This document shows positions 7,874 to 64,000 of a DNA stretch of 64,000 bases, in pieces. The stretch spans positions 65,456 through 129,455 of the forward strand of contig CALRAJ010000003.1 in the NCBI GenBank assembly GCA_943350765.1, given 5' to 3'. The translations under genes were made by a program, and so were the position numbers. How positions within the stretch are numbered: the first letter of the stretch is position 1; each line of letters opens with the position of its first letter. The notes beneath the pieces were generated by a model that was given only the letters and a program-made list of their open reading frames with translations, did not search any database and had not been told where the DNA came from. The stretch is from Candidatus Tayloriibacteriota bacterium (GTDB lineage: Bacteria > Patescibacteriota > Minisyncoccia > Phycocordibacterales > PALSA-1337).

Positions 7874-7984
7874 GCTCCATATAGCCACTTTCTAGGAACC
7901 ACTGATCCATTAGACGCGAGTGACCTTTTTTCAGGTTGCGTTAGGTATTTTGTGTCATATTGACCGATGTGCTATAGTTTATGT

Positions 7985-8740
7985 ATGTTAGAAAAATACC
8001 TTCAAGAAATAGGGCTTAATGAAAAAGAGGCGAGCGTGTACCTAGCCTTACTCCAATACGAAAATGCTTCAGCGATTGATATTTCTGAAAAAACTAAGAT
8101 CAACCGTTCGACCACATACACAGTTTTGGAATCACTGGCAAAAAAGGGTCTAGTAAGTGAGACGACCGTAGGTGTAAAAACTCGATATCACGCAGAATCA
8201 CCAGAGCGTTTGGAGTCTTTTGTTGAAAGACAAAAAGTTATTCTAGAGGAACACTCAAAGCGCTTAAAGGACATTATTCCACAGATCAAGAGTGTGCAGA
8301 GAGAGAGCGGAGAAAAACCGATCGTTCAGTATTATGATGGAAGGGAGGGTATTATTACCTCAGCAGAAAGACTCTATGAGAAAAATGATGAGGGCGGGGA
8401 AGTCTATTTGATGTACTCACGCGACCTGATTACAGATATTTTTTCAGAAACTGAAAATAAAAAATATAGAAAAATAAGACTTGATAAGGGTATTAAGTCC
8501 AAGGTTCTGTACACATACAAAACAGGTGAGCTAAAATCCGATGAAATGGGCGACAGAGTAAAGATTGATGGCGAAAAGTACCCAATAAAATGTGATATTG
8601 CAATATATAAGGATAGAGTACGAATAAACACTCTCACAAAATCTTTATCTAGCGTTTTTATTAAGAGTCAGGATTTGGCGGATACTCTGCGAAGCCTATT
8701 CGACCTAGCACATGATTATATAAAAAAAAGTCGGCCATAG
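7985..8740 (+). CDS. TrmB-family transcriptional regulator
   Basis: N-terminal wHTH LNEKEASVYLALLQYENASAIDISEKTKINRSTTYTVLESLAKKGLV. Start taken at MLEKY. Confidence 0.7.
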   Translation: MLEKYLQEIGLNEKEASVYLALLQYENASAIDISEKTKINRSTTYTVLESLAKKGLVSETTVGVKTRYHAESPERLESFVERQKVILEEHSKRLKDIIPQIKSVQRESGEKPIVQYYDGREGIITSAERLYEKNDEGGEVYLMYSRDLITDIFSETENKKYRKIRLDKGIKSKVLYTYKTGELKSDEMGDRVKIDGEKYPIKCDIAIYKDRVRINTLTKSLSSVFIKSQDLADTLRSLFDLAHDYIKKSRP

Positions 8741-10220
8741 TTACCTATGACCGACTCGCGTACTAGCTTTTAGTATAAATCTATTTCCGATGCCCTTTTC
8801 GTGCTAATCAGAATGATTTTACTAACCAATGAGGTGATTTTTCCCCTAATCAGACTTCACCATAGACTTTACCTTGCCTGCTGGGGTTTTCCCCTTAATC
8901 GGACTCGCCGCTGTGCTGCATAATAGGCCTTTTGGCTTGTTGTTTGTGGTGTGCCTGAGAGAACTCGACTGGAGTGGGCTTCCAATACCGTGTTCTAGTG
9001 CCAATGAGGTCCACTAGAACACGGTACTTTCTGCCTAGCTTAGTCGCTCATTGTGTCCTCCTTTGGCTACAGGTGGCTAGTATTGCCGGCGTCTCATGAC
9101 ACCACCACCCTACATCCAAAAGACAGTATATACTATCTGCGGTACATTTGTCAAGTATTACTAACATTTTTCATGACTAAGGCTATATTACTAGCCATAT
9201 TTTCATATAAATCAACGATTAATAGCCATTTTAAGTGTTTTTAATAAATGACAGAATTATTTTATTAAGAATTATAAAAATAATATGTCAAAGAAATACT
9301 AATAATGTTATATCTCAATAACACTTATATATGTATAAATAGCTTTAAATAAGGATATCATGGTATTTAAAAACGAGAAGTGTCAAAAAGGCTTGACAAA
9401 AATACTGTATCGTGTATACTCATGCACAGATTGATTTTTGATTGCGTTGGGTACTTCTTTGTGTTTCTTTAAAAAACTTCTCGGCCTCCCAGTAATACAG
9501 TGGGGTTTTAAAGAGAACATTTTTGAGAAGCACAAAGAAGTATCCAATTTTATACCAAAATGCACATCATGAGTGATGGCACAACCATGACCCACGCTGA
9601 GTGGCTCGCATGGTTGCGCGGGGAGTAGAAGTACTTCCTATGCTGCGATTGCAGAAATGTGATACGCGGGGTTTGGGTGTCTACCTGGCAAAATAAGGAC
9701 ACAGCAGATCAGAAACAATCAACGGAGAATTTTAAGATTCTCCACTTCATTGGGTTTACAACATTGTGTTGCAAATCCATAGAGTTTAGCTCTTTGAATA
9801 AAAACATTAGGTGTCTGCACTAAATTGTGTTTATGAGAAATGAGAAAGTATAAACATAGCTTAGTGCAGATACTTTGCATGTATCCGAGCACCAGTATCA
9901 CTGATGTGGTGATACGAAGGAAAGTAGGTATATCGTTTGTCGATCCAACAAACTCGCAGGGGGAAATCCTCGGAGTATTGATGGTTGATAAACGAGCCTG
10001 ACGGTACAGAGAACGGCTCTGATTACCGGACTTACTGAGCCCTAAACAGTTATTAGGCTGTTATGGGGGAGGGTAATAACTCCCGCTGACGAAAAGCTAT
10101 CGTCAGTACTTGGTGGATGAATGATCCCAGTGGATCGTTCGGAGGTTGTAGATAGGTCGCGACCTGTCTAGCCTCCACTGCATATAGTTTATTTCGATGC
10201 CCCCAGACACATGGTCTGGG

Positions 10221-10296
10221 TTCTGTCCGAGAGTATTTGCTCTCGCTGATGAGTCCGACCTATAGCGTAAAACGCTTGGCCATGAGGACGAAACAG
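10221..10296 (+). ncRNA. hammerhead ribozyme motif HHR1 (type-III-like topology)
   Basis: cuGUC | stem I cgagaguauuugcucucg | CUGAUGA | stem II gucc...ggac | GAAAC | ag. Predicted cleavage after C10227. Confidence 0.6.
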
Positions 10297-10621
10297 AATG
10301 TTCTTTAAAATAAGTACATCTACGCAAATAGTGTTTGAAATATCGATCACTGCTTGCGCAGATGTACATAGAAGACATCAAAGCGCCCACGGGCGACCGT
10401 GAGCACTTGATATTTGGAGCAAAATAAGGGCGTTGACCTTTATTTTGGAACCATGCAACTTCCGATTCATTTCGGAAGGCTTTTTTCAAGTTAAATCAGC
10501 TTCATTGCTGGATGTTGGATGATCACCGACAGGTAACCACTCGAATATTATTTGAGTGAACCACTTCTAGACTTCCTCCTTCGTAAATCCTGCCTAACTT
10601 CGGGTATAGGTTGAAGGGGGT

Positions 10622-10696
10622 TTCTGTCCACGAATATCATTCGTGCTGATGAGCTAGTCTAATACCGCATGGAGGTTGATGACAATAGCGAAACAG
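10622..10696 (+). ncRNA. hammerhead ribozyme motif HHR2
   Basis: cuGUC | stem I cacgaauaucauucgug | CUGAUGA | stem II cuag..uag with large loop | CGAAAC | ag. Cleavage after C10628. Confidence 0.5.
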
Positions 10697-10847
10697 AATG
10701 TTCTTTGAATAATTCGTCATAGCAGAAAGTGGCTCAAGTCTTGGGCTATTCTCCGCTATGACGAAACCTGTCGGTTACGTATAGCAAACGCACCCAAACC
10801 TTTTAAATAAGGGTTGTTTAGCGATAACGTTACCGCCTTGTAATATT

Positions 10848-11556: not shown

Positions 11557-11607
11557 TACTGTCCGAGAGTGCGTACTCTCGCTGAAGAGCTCAAAAGAGC
11601 GAAACAG
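11557..11607 (+). ncRNA. hammerhead ribozyme motif HHR3 (minimal)
   Basis: cuGUC | cgagagugcguacucucg | CUGAAGA | g cuc aaaa gag c | GAAAC | ag. Cleavage after C11563. Confidence 0.6.
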
Positions 11608-11924
11608 AATGTTCTTAAAACCAAAAATCTTTAACCTCCGCTTTATTTATTTTATTCCGAAATAGAATGCATAAAGCGGAGGTGTAAAGAACGCCACTCC
11701 GACTTCACCGAAGGGAAGGGCGGTGGTCGTAACCACTGTCAGCAACTAAACCGCACTCAAACATTGGCAGGTTGAAAACTGTCTTGGGTAATTCCAGATA
11801 ATGAGCAGTCATTATTATTTGAGAGGTGTAGTTGCAAGCTATAAATCATAAGCCAAGGGTGGCAAATTACCACCCTGTTGATTTATAGAAGGAGAATGCT
11901 CAGTAATTCAATACCCAGCCTTCT

Positions 11925-11982
11925 CCACTTTATTGAGTTCATAAAGAAATTTGTGGATTCATAGAGTTCTTTGAATTTTATG
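11925..11982 (+). promoter_or_regulatory. conserved leader hairpin motif, copy 1
   Basis: ctttattgagttcata...tgtggattcatagagttctttgaattttATG. Stem tgagttcata/tgtggattca holds only if GU wobbles are allowed. Homologous to 13051-13124 and 15818-15886. Confidence 0.5.
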
Positions 11983-12228
11983 TGGTATGACTGGGAATGG
12001 ATACAGTGGGCCAAGGAAGAGTGGTGGTATCTGGAAGTTAAACCTGAGAGTCCTCTCGGGAGGAAAATCAGATGGAAACTTCTGGTGAAAGCCGCTCTTG
12101 CTTATCTGCGTTCCGGAAAAGTCCAAGAAGAAAACTCAACCATCAGGGATGCCGTCAGGCTGGCACACGGGTGGGTGCAGAGTAATTTTCAGGGAATCGG
12201 AGTGTGGTTGGGCACTGGTCAACACTAA
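11980..12228 (+). CDS. hypothetical small Trp-rich protein (cassette ORF B)
   Basis: ATG at 11980 (MWYDWEW...), directly after the leader motif. Short, so low confidence. Confidence 0.3.
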   Translation: MWYDWEWIQWAKEEWWYLEVKPESPLGRKIRWKLLVKAALAYLRSGKVQEENSTIRDAVRLAHGWVQSNFQGIGVWLGTGQH

Positions 12229-12314
12229 CCATTTAAAACTGCCATATAAGTATGGCGGAGCACGGGTCACGGCTTGGCAACAGAATTGTGACAAATAAAT
12301 CTTGGTGTGCAGAA

Positions 12315-12397
12315 ACATGTGATGATACAGCATTATAAATGTATCCGTAATTCCTCGGTGAAGTTCCGAGGCGCCTGACGAGCGGAAATTGTTGGGG
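12315..12397 (+). repeat. composite intergenic repeat, blocks X plus Y, copy 1, continuous with HHR4
   Basis: acatgtgatgatacagcattataaatgtatccgtaat followed by hairpin ccucggugaaguuccgagg and cgccugacgagcggaaauuguugg. The same blocks recur at 16278-16384 and partly at 12854-12907. Confidence 0.55.
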
Positions 12398-12411
12398 ATC
12401 GCAAGATTCTC

Positions 12412-12466
12412 CTCTGTCTCGGAATGTGTTATTCCGACTGATGATGACTCAAAAGAGTCGAAACAG
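12412..12466 (+). ncRNA. hammerhead ribozyme motif HHR4 (minimal)
   Basis: cuGUC | ucggaauguguuauuccga | CUGAUGA | ug acuc aaaa gagu c | GAAAC | ag. Cleavage after C12418. Confidence 0.6.
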
Positions 12467-12538
12467 AGTGTTCTTTAAAATATATTTCATAGCACAGTCT
12501 CATTAAAGGGTCGATTTTCGATTTGATGGGAGTGTGCT

Positions 12539-12769
12539 ATGAAATATAAAACAAATTGGAAGCCGATTGTAGGAAGTCTCGATGAGTTACCTGTGCTAAG
12601 GAGCGCAACAACCCTAAGTGGGGTTGTTGAGTCAGCTTCTCGGACAGGGTCACTCGTTGTCCTTCTCGACGATGGAAGCAAGGTTGGAGTTTCAGGTGGA
12701 AAATATGCCCAAAAAGGACAAAGGGTCATACTCACTGATGGGGCTGATGGAGGTTATGTTGTGGCCTAA
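12539..12769 (+). CDS. hypothetical small protein (cassette ORF C)
   Basis: 76 aa, Gly/Val-rich. Confidence 0.35.
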   Translation: MKYKTNWKPIVGSLDELPVLRSATTLSGVVESASRTGSLVVLLDDGSKVGVSGGKYAQKGQRVILTDGADGGYVVA

Positions 12770-12853
12770 AAATCCAAGGTAATCCTAGCGGAGGCTAGTA
12801 CAACACTCACCACTCCCGCACATTCTCGGTGGGACAAAAAGTGGTCAAATCAT

Positions 12854-12907
12854 GGGACGTAATTCTTCGGGGAAGCTCCGAAGCGCCTAGCGAGCGGAAA
12901 TTGTTGG
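12854..12907 (+). repeat. partial X'-Y repeat without hammerhead
   Basis: gacgtaattcttcggggaagctccgaagcgcctagcgagcggaaattgttgg, homologous to 12340-12397. Confidence 0.5.
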
Positions 12908-13050
12908 TTTGGTAGTTGCTCCACAGCATACTTTATGGCACTTGCGTGTTAACTACTCAAGTGCAAAGGATCTACTCGTAGGCTTGATGGGTGAACCCGT
13001 CGGCATAAGAAAGAGTTGGCAAAAGATCCTGCTTGAGAACCACCTATTCT

Positions 13051-13124
13051 CGAGCACTTTATTGAGTCCATACAGTGAAATATTCTTATGGACTCATTGA
13101 GTGATTGTTTTTTGTGAATAAAAT
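13051..13124 (+). promoter_or_regulatory. conserved leader hairpin motif, copy 2
   Basis: gagcactttattgagtccata cagtgaaatattct tatggactcaa, a perfect 11-bp stem. The ATG of ORF D lies 27 nt downstream. Track ORF 12909-13100 overlaps it and is probably non-coding. Confidence 0.55.
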
Positions 13125-13574
13125 ATGAAAAAAAGAGGCGACACGGTTAGGTTCAACGACGTACACTTCGTTGTGTATCAGATTGTCAGGCCGATAGCCA
13201 TTGAGGGGGTCTTTGTGCTTCCTCTGGTGTTTGCTACGATGCCACTCACAACATCTGAACTTTTGGTAACCACCCCGAGAGGTCAGATGATAGCTCAGTG
13301 TTGGAATATGCGGAATGTCTCTGAAAAAGCTTTTGGACGGCTTGGAGATTCTGAGATAGGCATACTTTCCTTGGGGGAGATGGATCGCGTCCGGTTCGTT
13401 GTAAGGAATTTTTGGTCTGGATCCGATATTCCTCCTCATGTCGCGGAGTACTACGGGATTCATCCGATTGGCGATGACCACCCCGATCTTGAGCAGTACC
13501 TCAGAAGCTGGACTCGGAAAGTTGATCCGATTCAGGTGGATATCCGTGCCGAACTTTTTGGAAGGGGCATGTGA
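13125..13574 (+). CDS. hypothetical protein (cassette ORF D)
   Basis: 149 aa; GC noticeably higher than the flanking housekeeping genes. Confidence 0.4.
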   Translation: MKKRGDTVRFNDVHFVVYQIVRPIAIEGVFVLPLVFATMPLTTSELLVTTPRGQMIAQCWNMRNVSEKAFGRLGDSEIGILSLGEMDRVRFVVRNFWSGSDIPPHVAEYYGIHPIGDDHPDLEQYLRSWTRKVDPIQVDIRAELFGRGM

Positions 13575-13592
13575 GTTTTTCGGAATCAATAA

Positions 13593-14021
13593 GTGGACGA
13601 TGTAACGTTCACTTTCTTATCAAGTCCATCAACGATGGTGGGCTTGTTGGAAAAACGACAGAATTTCGAATTATCTATGAGCACAAATTTTCAGTCGGCA
13701 ATGGTCGAATGGGTTCTGACGGGAAACAATACGGAGGAAGACCCTTTTGAGTTTGAGTTCCATGCGATAACCAGCGATGAGGAGAGTAAGTTTCTTAGGC
13801 CGTTTGTCGTCGCTACAGTGTGGGTGGCCGGTGACGATTATGGTTTAATCGGGCCGTGCCTAGATAGATTGTTTGAAGAGAGTCGGTTTGCAGGCATGGC
13901 CCGTTACGGAAATGTTCGGCTGTCAACCATCGGTCTCGTTGTTTTTGATGGTATTGGAAAACTAACCTTCGCTTTGACTGATGAAGGTCAGTATGTGTGT
14001 TGTTTCGATAGTTTCACTTGA
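13593..14021 (+). CDS. hypothetical protein (cassette ORF E)
   Basis: 142 aa. Its first 25 codons are duplicated at 15250-15318. Confidence 0.4.
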   Translation: MDDVTFTFLSSPSTMVGLLEKRQNFELSMSTNFQSAMVEWVLTGNNTEEDPFEFEFHAITSDEESKFLRPFVVATVWVAGDDYGLIGPCLDRLFEESRFAGMARYGNVRLSTIGLVVFDGIGKLTFALTDEGQYVCCFDSFT

Positions 14022-14281
14022 TGGACCGCCGATCTCCATGGTACATGATCGGCAATTTATCAAGCTCGGCATTTTCCACACTGTAAAGTTGGAAAAATGA
14101 TGAGCTTGTAGATTTGATTTCAGTTCTTTGAAATCTCGTAACACATTTCATGTTCGACAGGTGAATGGGGACAGTCTAGACCCCCGTTCACTTGTTGAAA
14201 AATCCAAATAGGCATATCTGGAAGTTGCAAAAAAGCGACAGGATATGAGGGGTAGAGATTGCATCAATATTTCTATTTTTT

Positions 14282-15187
14282 GTGATGAGTGAACTTGTTA
14301 TGAAAATCACAATCTTGGTGAAGTGTGTCCAACTCGACCCCCGCCCTCAAGGCGCGGGAGGCAACGAGGAGTTTTTCCGCGGTAACCGCGTTCTCGGCAT
14401 CGAAGTCACGATTCCGAGCCTTGCGGCCCGCTGTATCGCTAACCTCGACCACCATGGCGAACATGACACAGCGGAAACGCCAAGTGCCTGTGAGCAAGCT
14501 CTCACCAAGAGCCTCGGCAATACTGGCGTAATCATGGCGACGGTTCGGCCTGATGCTGACTCGGTGACCGCCATGGCGGTTTTGGCACGGCAGCTCGAAG
14601 GCCTGTCAGTGGATGAAGACCTCATCCGCGCGGTCGGAGCCTTCGACCGGCTGGGGCCAGCTGCCGGGCGTCCGGAAGATCGCGTCATTGCGATCGCTCG
14701 GAAGGCGATGGACTTCAAGATCCTCCTGTGTGATCGGGTGATCTGGGTGGCTGACCTTATCGGGGGTGAGGACAAGTCGGCCGAGGTCGCGACTTTGGTG
14801 GCGTCTCACGATGCCGACATCGCCGCGGCTCGGCAGGCATCGCAAATCAGCACCCGCTCTTCCAAAGGGGTGATGATCGCATCGGTCACCTCTACTCACC
14901 GCAACGCCACCCTGCTCGGCTACGAGGCTGGACAGGTGGTGGTGGCGTTTAACCCCACCATGGCGGTGGACCCGAAGTCGCCCTCTGCCGGTACCTACGA
15001 GAAGTTCACGGTCTGCAGGTACGACTCCCATGTCAGGTGCGATTTGCCCTCAGCTCTCAAAGAACTTCAAGCTCTCGAAGTTGGGTGGGGTGGTCGCGGC
15101 GACATCTTCGGGTCCCCTCAGGGTGTCAGTTCGACCTTAGTGACGGCACAGGTGTTGGAAGTGGTTGCTCGCCACTGCTACGAATAA
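14282..15187 (+). CDS. hypothetical protein, markedly GC-rich (cassette ORF F)
   Basis: 301 aa, Ala/Arg/Gly-rich. Several antisense ORFs overlap it, as expected for high GC. Composition differs from the host genes. Confidence 0.4.
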   Translation: MMSELVMKITILVKCVQLDPRPQGAGGNEEFFRGNRVLGIEVTIPSLAARCIANLDHHGEHDTAETPSACEQALTKSLGNTGVIMATVRPDADSVTAMAVLARQLEGLSVDEDLIRAVGAFDRLGPAAGRPEDRVIAIARKAMDFKILLCDRVIWVADLIGGEDKSAEVATLVASHDADIAAARQASQISTRSSKGVMIASVTSTHRNATLLGYEAGQVVVAFNPTMAVDPKSPSAGTYEKFTVCRYDSHVRCDLPSALKELQALEVGWGGRGDIFGSPQGVSSTLVTAQVLEVVARHCYE

Positions 15188-15249
15188 GTTTTGACGGCGT
15201 TTGAGCAACGCCATCACATACCGCAATATGTGATTTCGAATCAACATGT

Positions 15250-15318
15250 AAATCAACAAGTGGACGATGCGGCGTTCACTTTCTTATCAAGTCCATCAAC
15301 GATGGTGGGCTTGTTGGA
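15250..15318 (+). repeat. direct repeat of the 5' end of ORF E
   Basis: caacaagtggacgatgcggcgttcactttcttatcaagtccatcaacgatggtgggcttgttggaaag is near-identical to 13585-13655. It encodes MDDAAFTFLSSPSTMVGLLERRGYQ and then a stop. Confidence 0.6.
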
Positions 15319-15406
15319 AAGAAGGGGATATCAATGATCCCGAAGTGGTTATTGAGAGGGCTAGACGGCAGATGGCCGAGAATTATGAAGGATTAGATTG
15401 AAAATT

Positions 15407-15570
15407 ATGGGAAAAGGTACGAAGTCCTTCAAGGTGTCAGGCGGTTCGGGAGGAAAGCGTGGTCACTCTAACATGTGCCATTGGACAGTTACTGCTGAAA
15501 TCAAGGCAGTTTCCAAGAGGGCGCGTCGTCTGGAAACCAAGCGTCTCATCGCTACTGAACGCCAAGACTA
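15407..15570 (+). CDS. possible small basic protein (54 aa)
   Basis: MGKGTKSFKVSGGSGGKRGHSNMCHWTVTAEIKAVSKRARRLETKRLIATERQD. Below the ORF-track size cutoff and speculative. Confidence 0.2.
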
Positions 15571-15817
15571 GAAGGCAATAACACCTTGCAAAAGGTTGCC
15601 ACAAAATCCGGTGGTGTAAATCAAGGTAAACAGTTTTGTCCCCGTTTTTTCTGAAAAAAATGGATGAGCCTAGAGGAAGCAGAGCCTCAAATGTTTTGTT
15701 CTTAAGGGGATCAATTTTTGCTAGCAAGAATTGATAAAGGATCTATCCCATAGCGTGATGAGAAATCATCGGCGTAAGGGGTGGCACAGATCCATGCTCA
15801 AAGAAAGGACCTAATCT

Positions 15818-15886
15818 TGAGCACTTTATTGAGTCCGTGCAGTGAAATACATTCGCGGATTCATAGAGTTCTTTACAAATTATGTT
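15818..15886 (+). promoter_or_regulatory. conserved leader hairpin motif, copy 3
   Basis: cttgagcactttattgagtccgtg cagtgaaatacatt cgcggattca tagagttctttacaaattatg. The stem is kept by compensatory and wobble changes relative to copies 1 and 2. Confidence 0.55.
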
Positions 15887-16219
15887 ATGAGTATGAAAAC
15901 CAACTCAGTTATCGGGGCTGTCATTTTGGTAGTCGTAATCTTCCTAACCACTGGTTGTGAGGAGGCTGACAAGAGTCAGTTCAACCTCACATCGTTTCCG
16001 ACTAACCACTGGAAAGTGGTCGGTCAGGGAACGAATGGGCAAGTCGTCGTCGAGACGACATCCACTAACCTGTTGCAGTACTTTCGGGTACACCTAGCGA
16101 CAGCTGTGGTTCCCTTGACTAACGGGCAATCGGCCCGACTCGAGGTAACCACAAGGTGGAATCCCAGGAAAGGGGTGCGGGAGATTATCTCCTCCATGGC
16201 TTATCCAGCGATGGAGTGA
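15887..16219 (+). CDS. hypothetical lipoprotein (cassette ORF G)
   Basis: MSMKTNSVIGAVILVVVIFLTTGCEE is a signal peptide plus lipobox Cys. First in-frame ATG after the leader motif. Confidence 0.4.
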   Translation: MSMKTNSVIGAVILVVVIFLTTGCEEADKSQFNLTSFPTNHWKVVGQGTNGQVVVETTSTNLLQYFRVHLATAVVPLTNGQSARLEVTTRWNPRKGVREIISSMAYPAME

Positions 16220-16277: not shown

Positions 16278-16384
16278 ACATGTGATGGTACAGCATTATA
16301 AATGTATCCGTAATGTGATTTGGCTAATACCAAATCCGACTCTGGGGAAGCTCCGGGGCGCTTGACGAGCGGAAACTGTTGGGG
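16278..16384 (+). repeat. composite intergenic repeat, blocks X plus Y, copy 2, continuous with HHR5
   Basis: acatgtgatggtacagcattataaatgtatccgtaat, then a 30-nt insert, then ctctggggaagctccggggcgcttgacgagcggaaactgttgggg. Confidence 0.55.
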
Positions 16385-16398
16385 ATCATAAGATCCTC

Positions 16399-16453
16399 CC
16401 CTGTCTCGGAATGTGTTATTCCGACTGATGATGGCTCAAAAGAGCCGAAACAG
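16399..16453 (+). ncRNA. hammerhead ribozyme motif HHR5 (minimal)
   Basis: cuGUC | ucggaauguguuauuccga | CUGAUGA | ug gcuc aaaa gagc c | GAAAC | ag. Cleavage after C16405. The stem II changes a-u to g-c relative to HHR4 and so are compensatory. Confidence 0.6.
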
Positions 16454-16499
16454 AATGCTGGTGTGCTTGTTGGAAAAATTACGGTATTCGTATTTCCCT

Positions 16500-16835
16500 A
16501 TGAAGACATTTCAAGACGAAGTCTGTGGCGATCTGGTGGCCTCGGTGATATCTGGCTACACATCCCTGAATCATTCGGATGTTAAGGCGTGGATTATGAA
16601 GTGGGGGTTGATGCCCGTTGAATTCCCTCAAGACCTCTGTCTTTCGTTGATTGAGATAGACGAGGATCATGAGACTGATGGCGGCTTGGTTATAAACCTC
16701 GGAAAGATTGATGGTACCAGGAAATGGTATGCAAACAAACCCAAAGATGTCATCGAAAAAGTTCGACGGGATATTGCCGACGCACTACGGGATCTAGGAG
16801 CTGTTACCAAAGAATCTTCTCGGGCGACGGACTGA
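16500..16835 (+). CDS. hypothetical protein (cassette ORF H)
   Basis: Track ORF 16413 overlaps HHR5, so start is moved to ATG 16500 (MKTFQDE...). Confidence 0.35.
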   Translation: MKTFQDEVCGDLVASVISGYTSLNHSDVKAWIMKWGLMPVEFPQDLCLSLIEIDEDHETDGGLVINLGKIDGTRKWYANKPKDVIEKVRRDIADALRDLGAVTKESSRATD

Positions 16836-16938: not shown

Positions 16939-19900
16939 ATGACAGATGAAACTAAAAATAAGCTGATACAGCCTTTAATTCCAGTACAGAAAAGCTTGGT
17001 TGCTCAAAAAGAGGAGGAAATTCTCGCTTTTTGGCAGAAAAATAATATTTTCAAAAAGACTATCGAAAAGCCTGCACCAAAAGGTGATTTTGTGTTTTAT
17101 GATGGACCACCTTTTGCTACGGGTCTGCCACATTTTGGGCATCTTTTGCCAACCTCGATCAAAGACGCTATTCCTCGTTATAAAACCATGCAGGGCTTTC
17201 GGGTAGCTCGTCGCTGGGGCTGGGACTGTCACGGTTTACCTATAGAAAATCTGGTGGAAAAAGAGCTTGGACTGAAAACCAAGCAGGACATTGAAAGCTT
17301 CGGTGTAGGAAATTTTAATAAGGCCGCACGGGATACTGTATTGCGATACGCCTCGCAATGGAAAGAAATCATTCCCCGCATCGGGCGTTTTGTGGATATG
17401 GAGGACGATTATCGTACTATGGATGCTTCCTATACCGAGTCCGTCTGGTGGGTATTTAAAACACTTCATGAAAAGGGCCTCGTACATCAGGGCTTCAAGT
17501 CCATGCAACTCTGTCCGAGATGTGAGACCACACTATCAAACTTCGAAGTCAATCTAGGGTATAAAGACATTACTGATATTTCAGTATTTGTAACCTTTCC
17601 ACTTCTAGAGGATCCTAGTATTTCACTTATTGCATGGACCACAACACCATGGACTTTGCCCGGTAATGTAGCTCTCGCGGTGGGGGCGGATATTGTGTAT
17701 GTACAGATTGCGCTTGAAGGTAAAAAGTATATTGTAGCAAAGGAGCGAGTGGGGCAGGTGGCAAAGGATAAGGCGTATACGATCGAGAAGGAATTTAATG
17801 GCACTGATTTGGTAGGTAAAAAATATGTACCGATTTTTGATTATTATATAAATGATACGGCACTCGCAAATAGAGAAAATGGCTGGAAAATAGTAGTAGG
17901 AGATTTTGTGACTACGACTGATGGCTCAGGTATTGTGCATATTGCTCCAGCTTTCGGGGAAGACGATTATGAGCTCTCAAAGCGAGAAAAATTGCCTTTT
18001 GTGCAACATGTTACAACAGGTGGATTATTTAAAAAAGAGGTTACGGATTTTGCTGGACAGTCAGTAAAGCCAAAAGAAGACCCTACTCAGACCAAGTCTG
18101 ACGGGCAAGTCCATCAGAAGGCTGATATCGAAATTATCAAACATCTCGCTCACGCGGGACGACTTTTTGGTAAAGAAAAAATTATTCACTCGTACCCGCA
18201 CTGTTGGCGTTGTGAGACCCCACTTTTAAATTACGCTTCTTCGTCGTGGTTTGTAAATGTACCAAAGATCAAAGACCGACTGGTAGCAGAAAATAAAAAG
18301 ATTGGCTGGACGCCAGAGTTTGTGGGAGAGGGAAGGTTTGGCAACTGGCTGTCTGGAGCGAGGGAGTGGGCGATTTCTCGCTCGAGATACTGGGGTGCAC
18401 CACTGCCAGTCTGGAAATGTAGTGAATGTGACAAAAAAGAATTCATAGGCTCAGTAGAAGAGCTCAAAAAGCATCTCAAGCCGAGAAACACCTATTATGT
18501 GATGAGACATGGTCAGTATCCGGGGAACGCAGAAGGTTTCTTGTGTTCAGGGCTCGACTGCGCAGGATTGACAGATGTTGGTCGTGGTGAAGCGATTAAA
18601 GCTACTAAAACTCTTTCTGACACAAAGATTGATTTGATCATAACCTCACCTCTTGCGAGAACAAAGGAGACCGCATATATCGTTGCAGAAAATTTGGGTA
18701 TTACAAAAGAAAAGATTGTTGAGGATGAGCGACTTCAGGAAATAAAGTTTGGTATTTTTAACGGTAAGCCTGCTGGGGAATACCATAAACAATTTGAAGG
18801 TGGAGGTGATGGCTGGTTCACAAAAGGTCCTGTGGATGCAGAAAGTCATTTGCAAGTAAAACACCGAATGGGGGATGCTCTTTATGACCTAGAACAGAAA
18901 TATCAAGGTAAAAAGATTTTGATTGTGACACACGATACTCCAGCGTGGCTTTTGATAGCCGCTTCTTTGGGGCTTAATCAAAAAGATACTATCGATCTTC
19001 ATCCTGGTGGGGATTTTATGAAAAATGCTGAAGTCAAAGAAATGCCTTTTGTAACAATTCCACATAATGCTGACTACGAGCTCGACCTCCACCGGCCGTA
19101 TATCGACGAGGTGACTTTTACCTGCTCATGTGGAGGAATAATGAAGCGAGTGCCAGAGGTTTTTGATTGTTGGTTTGAGTCTGGCGCAATGCCTTATGGT
19201 CAAAATAAGTATCAAGGTACAGCACTTTCTGGATTTGATCCAAAAAGTGCTATGGGTTTCCCTGCTGACTTTATTGCAGAAGGACTAGATCAAACTCGTG
19301 GCTGGTTTTACTCGATGCTCGTCCTAGGTGTAGCTTTGTTTGATAAAACTCCTTATAAAAATGTTATCGTAAACGGAGTGATTTTGGCAGAGGACGGACG
19401 AAAGATGTCAAAATCACTTAAAAATTATCCAGACCTGATGCTCACGGTAGATAAATACGGTGCAGACGCTTTGAGGTACTATTTGCTCGCATCACCATCG
19501 GTGCGAGCCGAAGACGCTTGTTTTTTTGAAAAAGGTGTAGATGAAGTAGTAAAAAAGCACATCGGTCGTCTGAACAATGTCTACACATTCTATGCTCTAT
19601 ATTCCCAAGGCGAAAACGCACTATCTGCGAGTGCGGACTCTAAAAACATTCTCGATATATGGATACTTGCGAGACTAGCCGAGCTGGTAGAGACGGTAGA
19701 AGCCTCGATGGAAAAATACGAGCTAGACCGAGCATCTCGACCGATTGCCGATTTTATAGACGATCTTTCCACTTGGTATATTCGTCGTTCAAGAGACCGT
19801 TTCAAATCAGAAGATATTGCGGATAAAAAATCTGCACTACAAACTACGAGGTTTGTGCTGGAACATTTATCAAAAGTGATCGCACCTTTTATGCCGTTTT

Positions 19901-20499
19901 TGGCAGAAGATATATATCAAAAAGTGAAAGGTTCAAACGGGTTTGAAAGTGTCCATTTGGCAGAGTGGCCTCAGGTGGATTTTGTAGATAAAGCACAACA
20001 GCTAAAAGTAATCACCAGCATGCAAGAAGTTCGAAAGATCGTAACACTAGGTCTTGAAGCTAGGATGCGAACAAAAATAAATGTGAGGCAGCCACTTTCG
20101 GTACTAAAAATAAAGCTACCCGTATCAATATCTATTGCTGAAAAAGAAATGATTGCTTTGATAGCTGATGAGGTAAATGTTAAGCGGATTGTATCAGATG
20201 AAACAATAAATACTGAAGTGGAACTGGATACCCTGATCACCCTAGAGCTAAAAGCCGAAGGGCAGGTCAGAGAGCTTATTCGAGCTATTCAGGATTTACG
20301 AAAGAAACAAGGTCTGACCGTTACGGATAGACCTGTGCTTTCTGTGGCGACAAGTGATATTGGTAAAAAACTCTTGACCGATTTTAAAAAAGAAATCAGT
20401 AGAGCGACTCAGCTAAGAGAACTTTTGATTTTAGATACTGGGGTGGGGGAAAGGGTGGTTTTGGACGAAGTTATTTTCGAGCTTGTTCTCGTTATGTAG
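16939..20499 (+). CDS. ileS: isoleucyl-tRNA synthetase with an inserted histidine-phosphatase (PGAM-like) domain
   Basis: HIGH-type motif PHFGHLL, WTTTPWTLPGN in the editing domain, KMSKS, and anticodon-binding C-terminus. At 1186 aa it is over-long because of a domain at about 18487-19010 (YYVMRHGQ...IVTHDT). Confidence 0.9.
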   Translation: MTDETKNKLIQPLIPVQKSLVAQKEEEILAFWQKNNIFKKTIEKPAPKGDFVFYDGPPFATGLPHFGHLLPTSIKDAIPRYKTMQGFRVARRWGWDCHGLPIENLVEKELGLKTKQDIESFGVGNFNKAARDTVLRYASQWKEIIPRIGRFVDMEDDYRTMDASYTESVWWVFKTLHEKGLVHQGFKSMQLCPRCETTLSNFEVNLGYKDITDISVFVTFPLLEDPSISLIAWTTTPWTLPGNVALAVGADIVYVQIALEGKKYIVAKERVGQVAKDKAYTIEKEFNGTDLVGKKYVPIFDYYINDTALANRENGWKIVVGDFVTTTDGSGIVHIAPAFGEDDYELSKREKLPFVQHVTTGGLFKKEVTDFAGQSVKPKEDPTQTKSDGQVHQKADIEIIKHLAHAGRLFGKEKIIHSYPHCWRCETPLLNYASSSWFVNVPKIKDRLVAENKKIGWTPEFVGEGRFGNWLSGAREWAISRSRYWGAPLPVWKCSECDKKEFIGSVEELKKHLKPRNTYYVMRHGQYPGNAEGFLCSGLDCAGLTDVGRGEAIKATKTLSDTKIDLIITSPLARTKETAYIVAENLGITKEKIVEDERLQEIKFGIFNGKPAGEYHKQFEGGGDGWFTKGPVDAESHLQVKHRMGDALYDLEQKYQGKKILIVTHDTPAWLLIAASLGLNQKDTIDLHPGGDFMKNAEVKEMPFVTIPHNADYELDLHRPYIDEVTFTCSCGGIMKRVPEVFDCWFESGAMPYGQNKYQGTALSGFDPKSAMGFPADFIAEGLDQTRGWFYSMLVLGVALFDKTPYKNVIVNGVILAEDGRKMSKSLKNYPDLMLTVDKYGADALRYYLLASPSVRAEDACFFEKGVDEVVKKHIGRLNNVYTFYALYSQGENALSASADSKNILDIWILARLAELVETVEASMEKYELDRASRPIADFIDDLSTWYIRRSRDRFKSEDIADKKSALQTTRFVLEHLSKVIAPFMPFLAEDIYQKVKGSNGFESVHLAEWPQVDFVDKAQQLKVITSMQEVRKIVTLGLEARMRTKINVRQPLSVLKIKLPVSISIAEKEMIALIADEVNVKRIVSDETINTEVELDTLITLELKAEGQVRELIRAIQDLRKKQGLTVTDRPVLSVATSDIGKKLLTDFKKEISRATQLRELLILDTGVGERVVLDEVIFELVLVM

Positions 20500-59740: not shown

Positions 59741-60836
59741 AATAAAAACGCCCTAGTATATACTATCCGTTACCTGAATATGTTGAAGAATCACTTTAAA
59801 AAGCGCTAAAGATAACGGATATTTTTCTGTTGTTTTTAGAACCGCTTAAAAAAGCGGATTTTTGTTTCCAAAAAGGAAACACCCAACCGAATGGTGCGAG
59901 GTTTAGGGCTAAATCATTCACGAAGGCGAATGATCGCCCGACTCCACGAAATGGAGTTTAGGGTCCAGAAACGACCGTCACTTTGAAAAATAAATCCTAT
60001 CGTCGTATCAACTTGCGGTGTACTCTTTTGGGTATACGCGTGGGTCTTTTCGGTACGATAGATAGCTGTACTGCGGAAACGCAGTACAAAACCTTTATCA
60101 GGTTTTCAATCAGGATCTGGTAAAGCGAATTGGTAAGTCTGTGGGGAGAAATCTTCACAGACAATTGTAAGTAAATAATTGTGGTTTTTAAATTTCCTAA
60201 TAGGAAATTAAGAGCATATGGTGGATGCCTTGACTTGAAGAGGCGATGAAGGACGCGGTCTGGCTGCGATAAGCTTCGGGGAGGTGCCTAGCAACCTTTG
60301 ATCCGAAGATTTCCGAATGGGGAAACCCCTCGTGCTTGACACGAGACTCTGTAGCAATACAGAGAGCATACCCAGGGAAGTAAAACATTTCATTACCTGG
60401 TGGAAAAGAAAACAATGTCCGCAAGGACAATATTTCCTAAGTAGCGGCGAGCGAAAAGGAAAGAGCCCAAACCGAAGCATCACGGTGAGTGTGATAGATG
60501 AGGCGAAAGTCGAAAGTACGAAGTCTAAGGTCGATTCAAAATGCAAACACTATGCATTTGAGTTCACTTTTGACTTTTAGGCTTAGGACTTTCGACTTGT
60601 GCATCGTACCCAGCGTGATGCTTCGGGGTTGTAAGGTGAGAGCGTTCTATTTATAGAAGTAGAGTTAAAAAATAGTGTATTAGCTTAAATATCTGAAAAG
60701 ATATACCCTAGAAGGTTATAGTCCCGTAAGCGAAAATATACTATCTCTATTGTTCTCATTCTTGAGTACCTCGAGACACGAATGGCTCGGGGGAATCTGC
60801 CGGAACTAACCGGTAAGGCTAAATACTCTTCAAGAT

Positions 60837-60875
<39 letters not shown>

Positions 60876-61630
60876 GCCCGTCAAGGGCGGTGAAATAGAC
60901 CTGAAACCATATGCTTACAAGGAGTAGAAGCGGTGTCTCGCTTGTGCGAGGAAAAATAAAGAATGTATGTATTGAATTATTCTCCCTTTTTTAAAGGGAG
61001 CAGGCTCCATGCCGAGGGATTTAAATTTCAAATCCCTCCGCGCCAGAGTACTGTCGGTGCTCCCTTTAAAAAAGGGAGAATTTAATACAACAGCTTTTGA
61101 TTTTTATTCGTAAAAGTGAGACACCGTGACTGCGTGCCTATTGAAGAATGAGCCAACGAGTTAATGTATGCTGCAAGCTAAGTCCTTTACCGGATGGAGC
61201 TTCAGGGAAACCGAGTGTTAATAGCGCGTCTGTAGTATACATTAGACCCGAAGCCAGGTGAGCTTGTCATGCGCAGGGTGAACTCTCGAGAAATCGAGAG
61301 GGAGGCCCGAACCGGTGAGCCGTTCAATACTCTCGGATGACGTGTGATAAGGAGTGATAAGCTAATCGAACCTGGTAATAGCTGGTTCTCTCCGAAATAG
61401 CTTTTGGGCTAGCGTCGGAATTACCTTTGAGGGGTAGAGCACTGGAAGGTCTTGACAGGTCGAAAGATCCCGAGACCTATCAAACTCCGAATACTCAGAG
61501 TAAATTTTCCGGCAGTTAGACTGTGGGGGCTAAGCTCCATTGGTCAAAAGGGAAACAGCCCGGATCTCCATTTAAGGTCCCTAAATCTATGTTAAGTACG
61601 CTTAAGGTGGTAAGTTTTCTCAAACAATGA

Positions 61631-61662
<32 letters not shown>

Positions 61663-62610
61663 GAAAGCGTAACAGCTCACTCATCGAGAGAATTTGCGCC
61701 GCAGATAATCGGGGTTAAACATAGTACCGAAACTGAGGATTGCATATGTCTTCGGACGTATGCACTGGTAGGAGAGTATTCGCAACTGCACTGAAGGTAA
61801 AGGGGTGACCCATACTGGAGCGTTGCGAAGTAAGAATGTTGGCACAAGTAACCACAATGCAGGTGAGATACCTGCACGCCGAAAGACCAAGGATTCCTTG
61901 GCTATGTAAATCAGCCAAGGGTTAGTCGGGCCTAAGGGAATGGCGAAAGCCGTACTCGATGGACACATGGTTAATATTCCATGACGTATTTTGTGTGCGA
62001 CGGGATGACGAAGAGTAGTATGTATAGCGCATTATTGGATTTGCGTTTGTGTCGTCAGGGTGATTTCCAGGAAAATCCGGAAGTCTGTGTTTAATCACGC
62101 TCCAAGCGATATGAAGATGCTCGGGTTCGCTCGGGTAAATTGTACAAAGCACACTTTCAAGAAAAATCTCTAAGCATAACGCAAAGTACACCGTACCGCA
62201 AACCGACACAGGTGGTCAGCTCGAGTAGAGTAAGGCGAACGAGTGATTTTTCTCCAAGGAACTCGGCAAAAAAGCAGCCGTAACTTCGGAATATGGCTTG
62301 CCCGAGCATCACATGGGGTGTGATGCAGGCAAAAGTCGAAAGGTCGTAAGTCTGAAAGTCGGGATCCCGACTTTATGGACTCTATACTTTTAACTTTTGA
62401 CTCGTGCATCGCGCTTCGCGCGATGCTCGGGCCGCAGCGAAAGTATCCCTGGCAACTGTTTATCAAAAACACAGCTCCCTGCGAACTCGTAAGAGGATGT
62501 ATAGGGGGTGACACTTGACCAATGCCAGAAGGTCAAACGACGGCGGTGCTATGGTCGCAAGATTGTAGTGCTGGATGTTGTAAGCCCTGGTGAATGTCGG
62601 CCGTAACTAT

Positions 62611-63438
62611 AGACATGACCGTTGTAGTTACGCAAATAAATCTTGCCATATGCTGGAAACTCTGGCTTCACCTTCAATTTGGAGATGAAGAAAAAAGTGT
62701 TTATTACTACTCGCTTTGTCGAAAAGCAGTGACAATGTAATAACGCAGACAATCAGCAGGAAAGACTTCTTCTGTAATCAAAAATAAAATGGATTGGCTA
62801 CGCCAAATCAAACCGGATATGGGAAACTATATCGCAGGGTTCACGGATGGTGAAGGAAGTTTCAACATTTCAGTGAAAAAGAGAATTGATTACAAAGATC
62901 ATTGGAAGTTGACAGCCTCATTTAATATCTCTCAAAAAGACCGTGTTATCCTTGCTCTCATAAAAAAGGAGCTTGGGTGCGGGACTCTGCGAGAGAGAAA
63001 AGACGGAGTTGTTTACTACGAAGTGACTAACATCACTTCATTGAAAGAAAGAATTATTCCGTTTTTTAAACGGTTTGGTTTTCTTTCAGCACGGAAAAAA
63101 ACAAATTTCTCCATCTTTTCGACAATTGTCGAAAAGATGGAGAAAGGAGAACATCTGACAGATGAAGGTTTTCTGAAAATTCTAGAATTGAGAGAAACTC
63201 TCAATGAAGGAAGGGGAAGAAAACGTAAGTATAATTTATCAGATTGTATATCAAAAGAAGAATCCTCAGAGACTATACGCAAGACGGTTTCAAATCAATT
63301 GGAAGTCGACGATTTGAGAACGATGATATAGTCCGACCTTTGTGGCGACACAAAGATTAACAAAAAAGCAGAATCTTTGATAAACAGAGACTAGTTAAAT
63401 AAGTCGAAATAGTATGAGTGCATTGCTACTACATTATG
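62611..63438 (+). mobile_element. group I intron in 23S rRNA (domain IV, near E. coli positions 1915-1917)
   Basis: Exon junction ccgtaactat|...|aacggtcctaaggtagcgaaattcc reconstitutes the conserved AACUAUAACGGUCC. The exon ends in U, the intron ends in G, and the intron carries a LAGLIDADG ORF. Confidence 0.75.
62789..63331 (+). CDS. LAGLIDADG homing endonuclease (single-motif type)
   Basis: IAGFTDGEGSFNISV motif; 180 aa; sits inside the intron. Confidence 0.8.
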   Translation: MDWLRQIKPDMGNYIAGFTDGEGSFNISVKKRIDYKDHWKLTASFNISQKDRVILALIKKELGCGTLRERKDGVVYYEVTNITSLKERIIPFFKRFGFLSARKKTNFSIFSTIVEKMEKGEHLTDEGFLKILELRETLNEGRGRKRKYNLSDCISKEESSETIRKTVSNQLEVDDLRTMI

Positions 63439-64000
63439 AACGGTCCTAAGGTAGCGAAATTCCTTGTCAGGTAAGTTCTGACGTGCACGAATAGTGTAAT
63501 GACTGGGGAACTGTCTCGGAGAATAGCTCGGTGAAAATACAGTACCGGTGAAGATGCCGGTTACCTGCAGTTAGACGAAAAGACCCTAGAAGCTTTACTG
63601 CAGCTTGATATTGAGCATATGTTTTTGATGCGTAGCGTAGATGGGAGGATTTGAAGTGTATCTCTCGGGGTGCATGGATCCGCAAGTGAAATACCATTCT
63701 TTAAAAATATATGTTCTAACCTGTACGGCAAAAACGCACAGGGACATTATCTGGTGGGCAGTTTTAGTGGGGCGCTATCCTCCTAAAGAGTAACGGAGGA
63801 GTTTATTAAGGTCAGCTAGGCGCGAATGGAAACCGTGCCGATAGTGTAATGGCATAAGCTGGCTTAACTGTGAGGCGTACTTGCCAAGCAGATGCGAAAG
63901 CAGAACATAGTGAACCGACCATTCGCATTAGACGCGGTGGAAGATTATCGGATAAAAGCTACTCTAGGGATAACAGGCTGGTTGTGCCTAAGAGTTCATA

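Follow-up and report, generated by a model that had tools for sequence, protein, structure and literature searches.

The subject of this analysis is a 64,000-nt stretch of a Candidatus Tayloriibacteriota chromosome, referred to here in its full length as the window, and a short motif that recurs between the small open reading frames (ORFs) of a cassette-like array located within it. Far from being an artefact, the motif is a genuine and widely conserved RNA element made up of two hairpins; its fold is specific to the gene-sense strand, and it occupies slots that are equivalent to, and interchangeable with, those of type III hammerhead ribozymes, with which it has a common downstream sequence box. 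The window copies are most probably new members of an orphan motif already reported as the DUF1874 motif. As to function, the element is tentatively regarded as a sense-strand RNA 'punctuation' that processes or stabilises a polycistronic cassette transcript.

A preliminary description of this DNA had placed three copies at 11925-11982, 13051-13124 and 15818-15886, where they are indeed found, with exact matches to the shared core CACTTTATTGAGTYC at 11926, 13055 and 15822, each on the + strand; the stems quoted for them are right, including the G-U pairs of copies 1 and 3. The total is nevertheless four, as an additional copy (ccacttcattgggtttacaa..ttgcaaatccatagagt, 9724-9785) carries a stem with further compensatory changes. 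The 14-nt loop starting with cagtgaaata, thought to be general, is present in copies 2 and 3 but not in copy 1, whose loop is short (about 4-8 nt, in the aaagaaattt region), and AGAGTTCTTT..ATG does follow copies 1 and 3, with the ATG of copy 1 at 11980, but the in-frame ATG after copy 3 is at 15887 and not at 15882. The conserved sequences initially taken for flanks are more than that, since ACUU pairs with GAGU and is therefore part of the stem. The copies and the accessory modules upstream of two of them, with the scores of a covariance model (R1), are the following:

Positions 9724 to 9785, + strand: motif copy 0, with hairpin P1 at 9724-9743 abutting the long hairpin at 9744-9785 (ACUU..GAGU); 61.1 bits, E 2.9e-12; fold -21.9 kcal/mol, z -5.07.
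Positions 11891 to 11967, + strand: motif copy 1, with P1 at 11891-11926 and the long hairpin at 11927-11967; 66.7 bits, E 1.2e-13; fold -29.5 kcal/mol, z -5.74.
Positions 13030 to 13102, + strand: motif copy 2, with P1 at 13030-13056 and the long hairpin at 13058-13102; 50.3 bits, E 1.4e-9; fold z -5.71.
Positions 15796 to 15869, + strand: motif copy 3, with P1 at 15796-15822 and the long hairpin at 15823-15869; 61.0 bits, E 3.1e-12; fold -28.4 kcal/mol, z -5.16.
Positions 12939 to 13029, + strand: accessory module ('type D', repeat D13) lying upstream of copy 2, in which a hairpin is followed by AAAGGAUCU..GAUG-hairpin-CGUCGGCAUAAG..AGAUCC.
Positions 15708 to 15795, + strand: upstream accessory module of copy 3 ('type D', repeat D13).

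Within the window the motif copies are confined to the array. Their E-values, from 1e-9 to 1e-13, are far beyond chance, and the four + strand regions fold into P1 plus the long hairpin at -22 to -30 kcal/mol (z -5.1 to -5.7), a stability equalled by 0 of 200 shuffled sequences.

The architecture consists of the variable hairpin P1 (6-14 bp) joined directly to a long hairpin of 17-23 bp, which comprises a closing helix ACUU/GAGU, a conserved YAU/UA internal loop, a helix UGRGUY/RAYYCA and a variable top; the lower 13 bp and the YAU/UA loop are conserved in sequence. In about 146 of 150 copies the 3′ strand of P1 ends at C or A directly before CUU, with no linker. Among 110 distinct metagenome copies, standard pairs were found in 95.9% of the cells and double-sided changes at 12 of 15 pairs, whereas pairing reached only 30-58% in a control in which the 3′ partners were slid by 1-3 columns. 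Even the closing helix, though nearly invariant, compensates (C-G to U-A or A-U; A-U to U-A or G-C), U17-A switches to C-G, and A19-U is replaced by G-C in 25 sequences. This strong covariation supports the early proposal that a structure conserved over a changing sequence points to a function at the level of single-stranded nucleic acid. Around 20 positions, grouped about the internal loop, are near-invariant, and only about 5 conserved positions are unpaired.

The YAU/UA region is a genuine internal loop: a continuous helix with a single bulged U, requiring the extra pairs Y14-A and A15-U, was rejected because 39 of 109 sequences leave Y-A unpaired and show no compensation. A kink-turn or loop-E arrangement was likewise discarded, as the G-A pairs that it needs are missing in the sequence, and so was a hammerhead variant or three-way junction, given that no consistent pairing connects the 5′ flank of P1 with the 3′ tail or the downstream box. 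An alternative 3′ mini-hairpin, GGAUUC-AUA-GAGUUC, can be formed in some copies only.

Only the gene-sense strand adopts this fold, as G-U pairs outnumber A-C by 327 to 34 among 1621 cells, and the antisense strands of copies 1 (only -21.2 kcal/mol) and 3 (-17.2 kcal/mol, z -1.2) do not form the long hairpin. The strand bias alone would be compatible with a structure of top-strand single-stranded DNA; taken together with the hammerhead data described below, RNA is the more economical reading. Upstream of the motif, several accessory modules exist across related loci, the type D module being also present in L010, L016, L018 and L034, and in one related pair (L085, L102) P1 goes along with the upstream flank. 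A GCGG loop in P1 accompanies a CCGC loop in the preceding hairpin (24/32 versus 26/116, Fisher p = 7e-8), an association that suggests a kissing-loop contact, and with it an RNA tertiary fold, in one subclass.

The search of related genomes that had been proposed at the outset yielded about 170 further copies with covariation. Scanning one genome per species (596 Gb) with a degenerate pattern gave 39 loci, about 27 of them in Patescibacteria (Wolfe-, Taylor- and Nomurabacteria, Paceibacterota, Saccharibacteria), the remaining 12 being devoid of the stem and resembling chance matches. Model R1, built from 33 copies, detected 53 copies in genome loci, many not fitting the search pattern, and 121 copies in 80 metagenome contigs, in total about 170 copies on about 100 genome and metagenome contigs of the Candidate Phyla Radiation (CPR). 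In loci with several copies (up to 5 per locus), all of them lie on one strand in 46 of 46 cases. No family of Rfam 15 matches the motif, either at the gathering threshold or in E-value mode, with the window, the related loci or a 261-nt query. A phage origin was rejected on account of the 0 motif copies in IMG/VR viral contigs and the almost complete lack of PHROG matches for the cassette ORFs.

The repeated and palindromic nature of the motif, together with the shuffling of modules among arrays, would fit a functionless selfish or neutral repeat, similar to repetitive extragenic palindromic (REP) sequences or miniature inverted-repeat transposable elements, or else the remnant of a duplicated 5′ untranslated region (UTR). 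For a duplicated 5′ UTR no more copies would be expected, and many exist; moreover, compensatory changes maintain the pairing across the Saccharibacteria and Paceibacteria lineages, which contradicts a selfish repeat, and the excess of G-U over A-C, the restriction to the array in the window, and the fixed position relative to ORFs and box also argue against an origin of this kind, which is very improbable.

As proposed from the three initial copies, the motif is an intergenic leader found before different ORFs in cassette-like arrays. Copies begin about 30-80 nt past the upstream stop codon and end about 10-80 nt ahead of the next start codon, and the spacing between motif and start codon ranges from about 3 nt to over 150 nt, with other modules in between. 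The 140 ORFs found downstream of the motif fall into 114 BLASTP clusters, and a riboswitch or gene-specific leader can therefore be excluded, the downstream genes being unrelated; about 80% of these ORFs have no Pfam family, and those annotated include GNATs, MoxR ATPases, response regulators and permeases. A sigma-70 promoter (TTGAGT ... TAGAGT) was also discarded, its spacer being variable and 23-40 nt long.

Hammerheads are interspersed with the motif copies, and a box follows both. The elements concerned in the window are:

Positions 10221 to 10298, + strand: type III hammerhead in a slot equivalent to that of the motif, then box GTTCTTTAA at 10300; Rfam Hammerhead_3 41 bits, E 3.9e-6 (gathering score 48.5), with canonical core and stems in the structural scan.
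Positions 10622 to 10698, + strand: type III hammerhead from the structural scan, then a box at 10700.
Positions 11557 to 11609, + strand: type III hammerhead with a CUGAAGAG core, then GTTCTTAAA at 11611.
Positions 12405 to 12470, + strand: hammerhead-like element (repeat D1) with an extra U after CUGAUGA and a box at 12470, 89% identical to 16392-16458.
Positions 16392 to 16458, + strand: hammerhead-like element, the same variant as 12405-12470; Rfam Hammerhead_3 30.2 bits, E 0.0043.
Positions 9789 to 9797, + strand: box GCTCTTTGA, after copy 0.
Positions 11966 to 11974, + strand: box GTTCTTTGA, overlapping the 3′ end of copy 1, 6 nt ahead of the ATG at 11980.
Positions 15868 to 15876, + strand: box GTTCTTTAC, overlapping the 3′ end of copy 3.

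The three canonical type III hammerheads and the two variants all score below the Rfam gathering threshold. GTTCTT(T/A)AA follows four of these five elements, the one at 16392-16458 being the exception; no GUUCUUU box follows motif copy 2, and exact boxes on the + strand of the window occur solely inside the array. A structural scan of related CPR loci identified 47 canonical type III hammerheads, several of which are independently scored by Rfam; they are co-oriented with the motif arrays in 34 of 35 cases, and in 33 of 47 (about 70%) a GYUCYU box lies within a few nucleotides downstream. After the motif the box has the consensus A-GUUCUUU-R-n-A-A and appears within 25 nt of 80 of 148 copies, usually at an offset of +3 or +4, or overlapping the motif as AGAGUUCUUU; when a 70-nt window is considered, it follows 71 of 152 copies, versus 3.5% at random positions. 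In about 10 families of homologous cassette ORFs, a hammerhead precedes the ORF of one genome and the motif that of another, as exemplified by the ORF at 15887-16219, which follows motif copy 3 and has a 65%-identical homologue in L006 that follows a hammerhead. In the literature searched, no paper ties hammerheads or other ribozymes to the arrays of Patescibacteria.

Another repeat, D2 (12346-12395, 12858-12907 and 16333-16382, + strand), consists of a hairpin CCUCGG..CCGAGG followed by GCGCCUGACGAGCGGAAAUUG; it resembles a hammerhead core but has no stem II, and its core GACGAGCGG recurs in 15 related loci.

The two candidate functions originally put forward, a stability or translation element of the transcript and an attC-like site, both stand, but the balance is shifted towards RNA by the folding of the sense strand only, the interchange with hammerheads and the loop-loop partner found in a subclass. 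A rather improbable explanation, although consistent with several of these data, is that the motif constitutes a new class of self-cleaving ribozyme, in which P0/P1 and the hairpin with the conserved internal loop would form the catalytic fold. The slot equivalence and interchange with hammerheads, the same box downstream of both, the near-invariant nucleotides and the possible loop-loop tertiary contact are in favour of it. Nevertheless, most of the conserved nucleotides are paired, and the few conserved unpaired ones are fewer than in known small ribozymes. The motif has neither the hammerhead core strands (CUGANGA, GAAA) nor a third helix between its flanks, and Rfam searches for twister, twister-sister, pistol, hatchet, HDV-like and hairpin ribozymes gave no match at E <= 10 in 14 kb, at E <= 2 in 66 kb of related loci, or even at E <= 10 with the 261-nt query. 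The laboratory that described the DUF1874 motif is said to assay ribozyme candidates routinely. In the main text of its 2017 paper (PMC5737381), what is probably the same motif is filed under 'integrons' and not under ribozymes, which we take to mean that cleavage was not seen, although the paper does not state this as a result.

The surroundings of the array are those of a bacterial chromosome, with genes for IleRS, GlyRS, MetRS, RecA, FtsK, RecO and 23S rRNA. The region at about 9.4-16.9 kb differs in its higher GC content and in its small ORFs, which have no Pfam, NCBIfam or PHROG family and are interleaved with repeated structured elements: the four motif copies, the three canonical and two variant hammerheads, and other repeats (D2, D3, D10). 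The following genes and signals are relevant to its organization:

Positions 7967 to 8740, + strand: TrmB-family winged-helix 'platform' gene (Pfam TrmB, 2e-18).
Positions 9393 to 9420, + strand: sigma-70-like promoter TTGACA-16-TATACT, with 11/12 consensus matches.
Positions 11980 to 12228, + strand: cassette ORF after copy 1, 82 aa, no family.
Positions 13125 to 13574, + strand: cassette ORF after copy 2, 149 aa, no family.
Positions 15887 to 16219, + strand: cassette ORF after copy 3, 110 aa.

In 25 of the 25 loci that contain both, the first motif copy has the TrmB-family gene upstream of it, divergent in 19 and co-oriented in 6, and motif copies are found downstream in 3 of 3 loci picked solely through TrmB homologues. 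Its product is 60-80% conserved over hundreds of Patescibacteria, has TrmBL2 as its closest solved relative, and shows no detectable nuclease or recombinase domain. The layout is thus integron-like, but with a regulator-type protein, a TrmB-family winged helix-turn-helix, in place of the integrase. DUF1874 (STIV_B116-like) ORFs occur in 18 related loci, typically as the first gene of the array, and the window array has none. In agreement with the initial remark that intI is missing, no integrase or Phage_integrase domain was found among the window ORFs scanned, and the tyrosine recombinases near related arrays are rare, Xer-like and mostly downstream.

This layout is one reason to consider a single-stranded DNA recombination site comparable to integron attC, at whose fold, or at the GTTCTTT box, cassettes made of an ORF and an element would be captured, excised and shuffled by a recombinase other than IntI. 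The motif and attC are alike in being folded single-strand hairpins with a conserved base, an unpaired central region or internal loop and a variable top, present once per cassette in co-oriented arrays of short, diverse, promoterless and mostly unannotated ORFs, headed at the 5′ end by a conserved and usually divergent gene that recalls an integron platform. Between related contigs there are kb-scale indels with motif copies at their borders, GNAT genes are found among the cassettes, and the authors of the DUF1874 motif raised the idea of a recombination site too (PMC5737381).

Several differences, however, weigh against an attC-like function. The base of the motif hairpin is ACTT../..GAGT, and the R'' (RYYYAAC) and R' (GTTRRRY) boxes are unmet, a mismatch already recognised in the preliminary description, while the GTTCTTT box has pyrimidines where attC needs purines and sits outside the helix. 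The motif folds on the mRNA-sense strand and attC on the bottom strand, and the sequence conservation of the motif is much higher. In place of IntI, the upstream gene belongs to a highly conserved regulator family. The motif is a 5′ leader, missing after the last window cassette (16413-16835), and it is replaced before homologous genes by hammerheads, which act only as RNA. Breakpoint mapping in related contig pairs (L085/L102, L039/L113, L097/L131), together with a histogram of the ends of high-scoring segment pairs, revealed a mosaic shuffling of modules with no sharp crossover point. The attC-like DNA model hence fails in box consensus, folding strand, integrase and hammerhead interchange, and is unlikely, although the array architecture and the motif-bounded indels leave it some weight. 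In a broader and likewise improbable scheme, the arrays would represent an integrase-less CPR cassette system anchored by a TrmB-like/DUF1874 platform, in which the element would be either a new ribozyme class, self-cleaving or RNA-processing, with which hammerheads are interchangeable, or the crossover site of a new, possibly RNA-mediated, form of cassette capture.

The reading provisionally preferred here, that of RNA punctuation, requires a polycistronic transcript, which we infer from the promoter scan of the window array: one strong promoter lies upstream, and in the 8.3 kb scanned around it promoter-like sites are about as frequent as in shuffled sequence. The promoter at 9393-9420 is the likely start of the array transcript, and the region 9377-9441 is conserved in L005, L111 and L146-L148. 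From this site, downstream of the TrmB-like gene, the whole array would be transcribed, and between cistrons the transcript would fold into P1 stacked directly on the 17-23 bp hairpin. The conserved duplex may then serve as a cleavage site, or at least as a block to exonucleases. The most likely agent would be an RNase III- or Mini-III-type endonuclease of the host, specific for double strands, self-cutting being less likely because the conserved nucleotides are mostly paired and few of them are unpaired. The cut would leave P1 at the 3′ end of the upstream cistron, where this hairpin would act as a stabiliser, and would place the beginning of the downstream cistron immediately ahead of the A-GUUCUUU-R leader box; type III hammerheads, in the slots nearby, would reach this end by cleaving themselves.

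Certain observations weigh against this proposal. RNase III is not known to require such extensive sequence conservation in a substrate, and the conservation of the motif could reflect instead a specific binding protein or alternative pairings. The few conserved unpaired nucleotides leave room for a pure barrier or binding role, and the array structure, the diversity of cassettes and the motif-bounded indels fit DNA-level recombination equally. In addition, one ORF of L027 has both upstream of it, a motif copy and a hammerhead arranged in series, which means that the two are not strict alternatives.

A binding role would imply a protein-binding operator in the 5′ UTR, controlling translation or mRNA fate without cleavage, with a DUF1874/STIV_B116-like, a TrmB-like or a housekeeping RNA-binding protein as the binder. 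A sequence-conserved duplex with a small conserved internal loop or bulge is typical of protein-recognised hairpins, and both the position of the motif in 5′ UTRs and its tight linkage to the TrmB-like gene, together with the DUF1874 genes of the 18 loci, are compatible with an operator. But the variable distance to the start codon and the intervening modules indicate that occlusion of the ribosome binding site is not general, TrmB proteins bind DNA, the window array is without a DUF1874 gene, and the replacement by hammerheads would be unexplained, all of which makes an operator unlikely.

Other features of the array and its vicinity deserve mention. A near-perfect long hairpin of about 115 nt (9440-9554, + strand) lies directly downstream of the array promoter and is followed by a 22-codon ORF (9560-9628) that is 92.5% conserved in L005. 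On the minus strand at 8728-9154, a near-consensus promoter TTGACA-18-TATACT (9154-9125) and an intrinsic terminator (8757-8728) bracket about 370 nt without an ORF, a candidate for an unannotated small RNA gene for which no Rfam match was obtained, even with a 481-nt query. Repeat D3 (13584-13653 and 15251-15320, + strand), 70 nt long and 94% identical between its copies, precedes two other cassette ORFs; the hairpins GUGGAC/GUCCAU and CCAUC-AAC-GAUGG are predicted in it, and among the sequences compared it is present only in this window. The cassette ORF at 14282-15187 (+ strand, 301 aa) has a markedly higher GC content (0.55 versus about 0.42), matches no family and probably came from a foreign source; ahead of it lie a further hairpin module and, at 14123, a GTTCTTTGA box.

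In related loci, an H-type pseudoknot module (GGGCUUUAAAUAGGUGCGCCCAAACAAUGCACCAG) occurs downstream of the motif, directly before the Shine-Dalgarno sequence and start codon of some cassettes (L001, L008, L014, L021, L022, L024, L028 and others), and a related pattern, with no Rfam match, is found in 19 loci. A long leader hairpin, ..UAUUCAUGC...GCAUGAAUAC.., lies downstream of the box in L036, L092, L025 and L009, among others; its 3′ arm holds the start codon of ORFs from an MNTK... family with GNATs among its members, and the hairpin may be a translation-sequestering structure. The arrays also contain genes of the DUF1874/STIV_B116-like (ring-nuclease) family and a SAVED-domain gene (L034 69-386 and 677-1222; 18 loci in all), which hints at a link to cyclic-oligonucleotide signalling or defence. 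Elsewhere in the window, the IleRS gene (16939-20499, + strand) has an inserted histidine-phosphatase (His_Phos_1) domain at residues 520-687, the 23S rRNA gene (60345-64000, + strand) contains several large insertions with respect to the bacterial model and has no 16S gene upstream, and no tRNA gene was found in the whole 64 kb.

Little is known of the RNA biology and the accessory-gene dynamics of CPR/Patescibacteria, whose genomes are tiny. In many of these genomes the motif marks a variable cassette-like array beside a conserved regulator, and orphan structured RNAs so conserved usually do something biochemically specific. A processing role of the element would account for the clustering of self-cleaving ribozymes around such genes, and a role as recombination site would mean a cassette system of a new kind. 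The sense-strand specificity, the hammerhead interchange and the common box make the question of 2017, whether attC-like or RNA, experimentally tractable.

Among known systems, the hairpins processed by RNase III in the early and late transcripts of phage T7 are likewise repeated and related in sequence, measure about 20 bp, contain an internal loop or bulge and are situated between the cistrons of a polycistronic RNA, and after processing the upstream mRNA retains a 3′ hairpin. The likeness extends to RNase III intercistronic hairpins in general, the motif being intergenic, about two helical turns long (17-23 bp) with an internal loop, and placed on what is presumably a single transcript. Unlike the T7 hairpins, however, cleavage of the motif is only predicted, its conserved part is the lower stem beside a second hairpin, and its host is a CPR chromosome, with no IMG/VR matches. 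In contrast to REP sequences and bacterial interspersed mosaic elements, the motif is not dispersed within the 64-kb window, where all copies lie inside the array, and its sequence is conserved across distant CPR lineages.

The array also resembles the ribozyme clusters near 'ribozyme-associated' genes, as hammerheads and structured RNAs lie within a few kb, although the motif itself matches no known ribozyme class. The gene classes reported in that work are said to include DUF1874. According to the 2017 paper (PMC5737381, citing Roth 2014 and Weinberg 2015), hammerheads and further structured RNAs lie no more than a few kb apart and equally close to genes of particular classes.

The closest counterpart is the DUF1874 motif (Weinberg et al. 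2017, Nucleic Acids Res 45:10811, PMC5737381), described in the main text as having several stems and an internal loop rich in conserved nucleotides, located mostly in 5′ UTRs and recurring from one intergenic region to the next (RNA-ORF-RNA-ORF); its authors drew the comparison with attC, noted that no integrase was present at the 5′ end and left the function open. No further paper on it was found in the literature searched. The identity of the two motifs is probable, as judged from the published description rather than from a comparison of consensus sequences. Both have a multistem fold, here made up of P1, the closing helix, the YAU/UA loop and P2, with about 20 near-invariant positions around the loop; both are located in 5′ UTRs as consecutive intergenic copies (four in the window, and up to five per contig elsewhere); and STIV_B116-like genes accompany the motif in 18 related loci, though not in the window. 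Apparently absent from the main text of the 2017 paper, and new here, are the restriction to CPR, the P1 hairpin abutting the long one, the common GUUCUUU box, the interchange with hammerheads and the TrmB-like platform.

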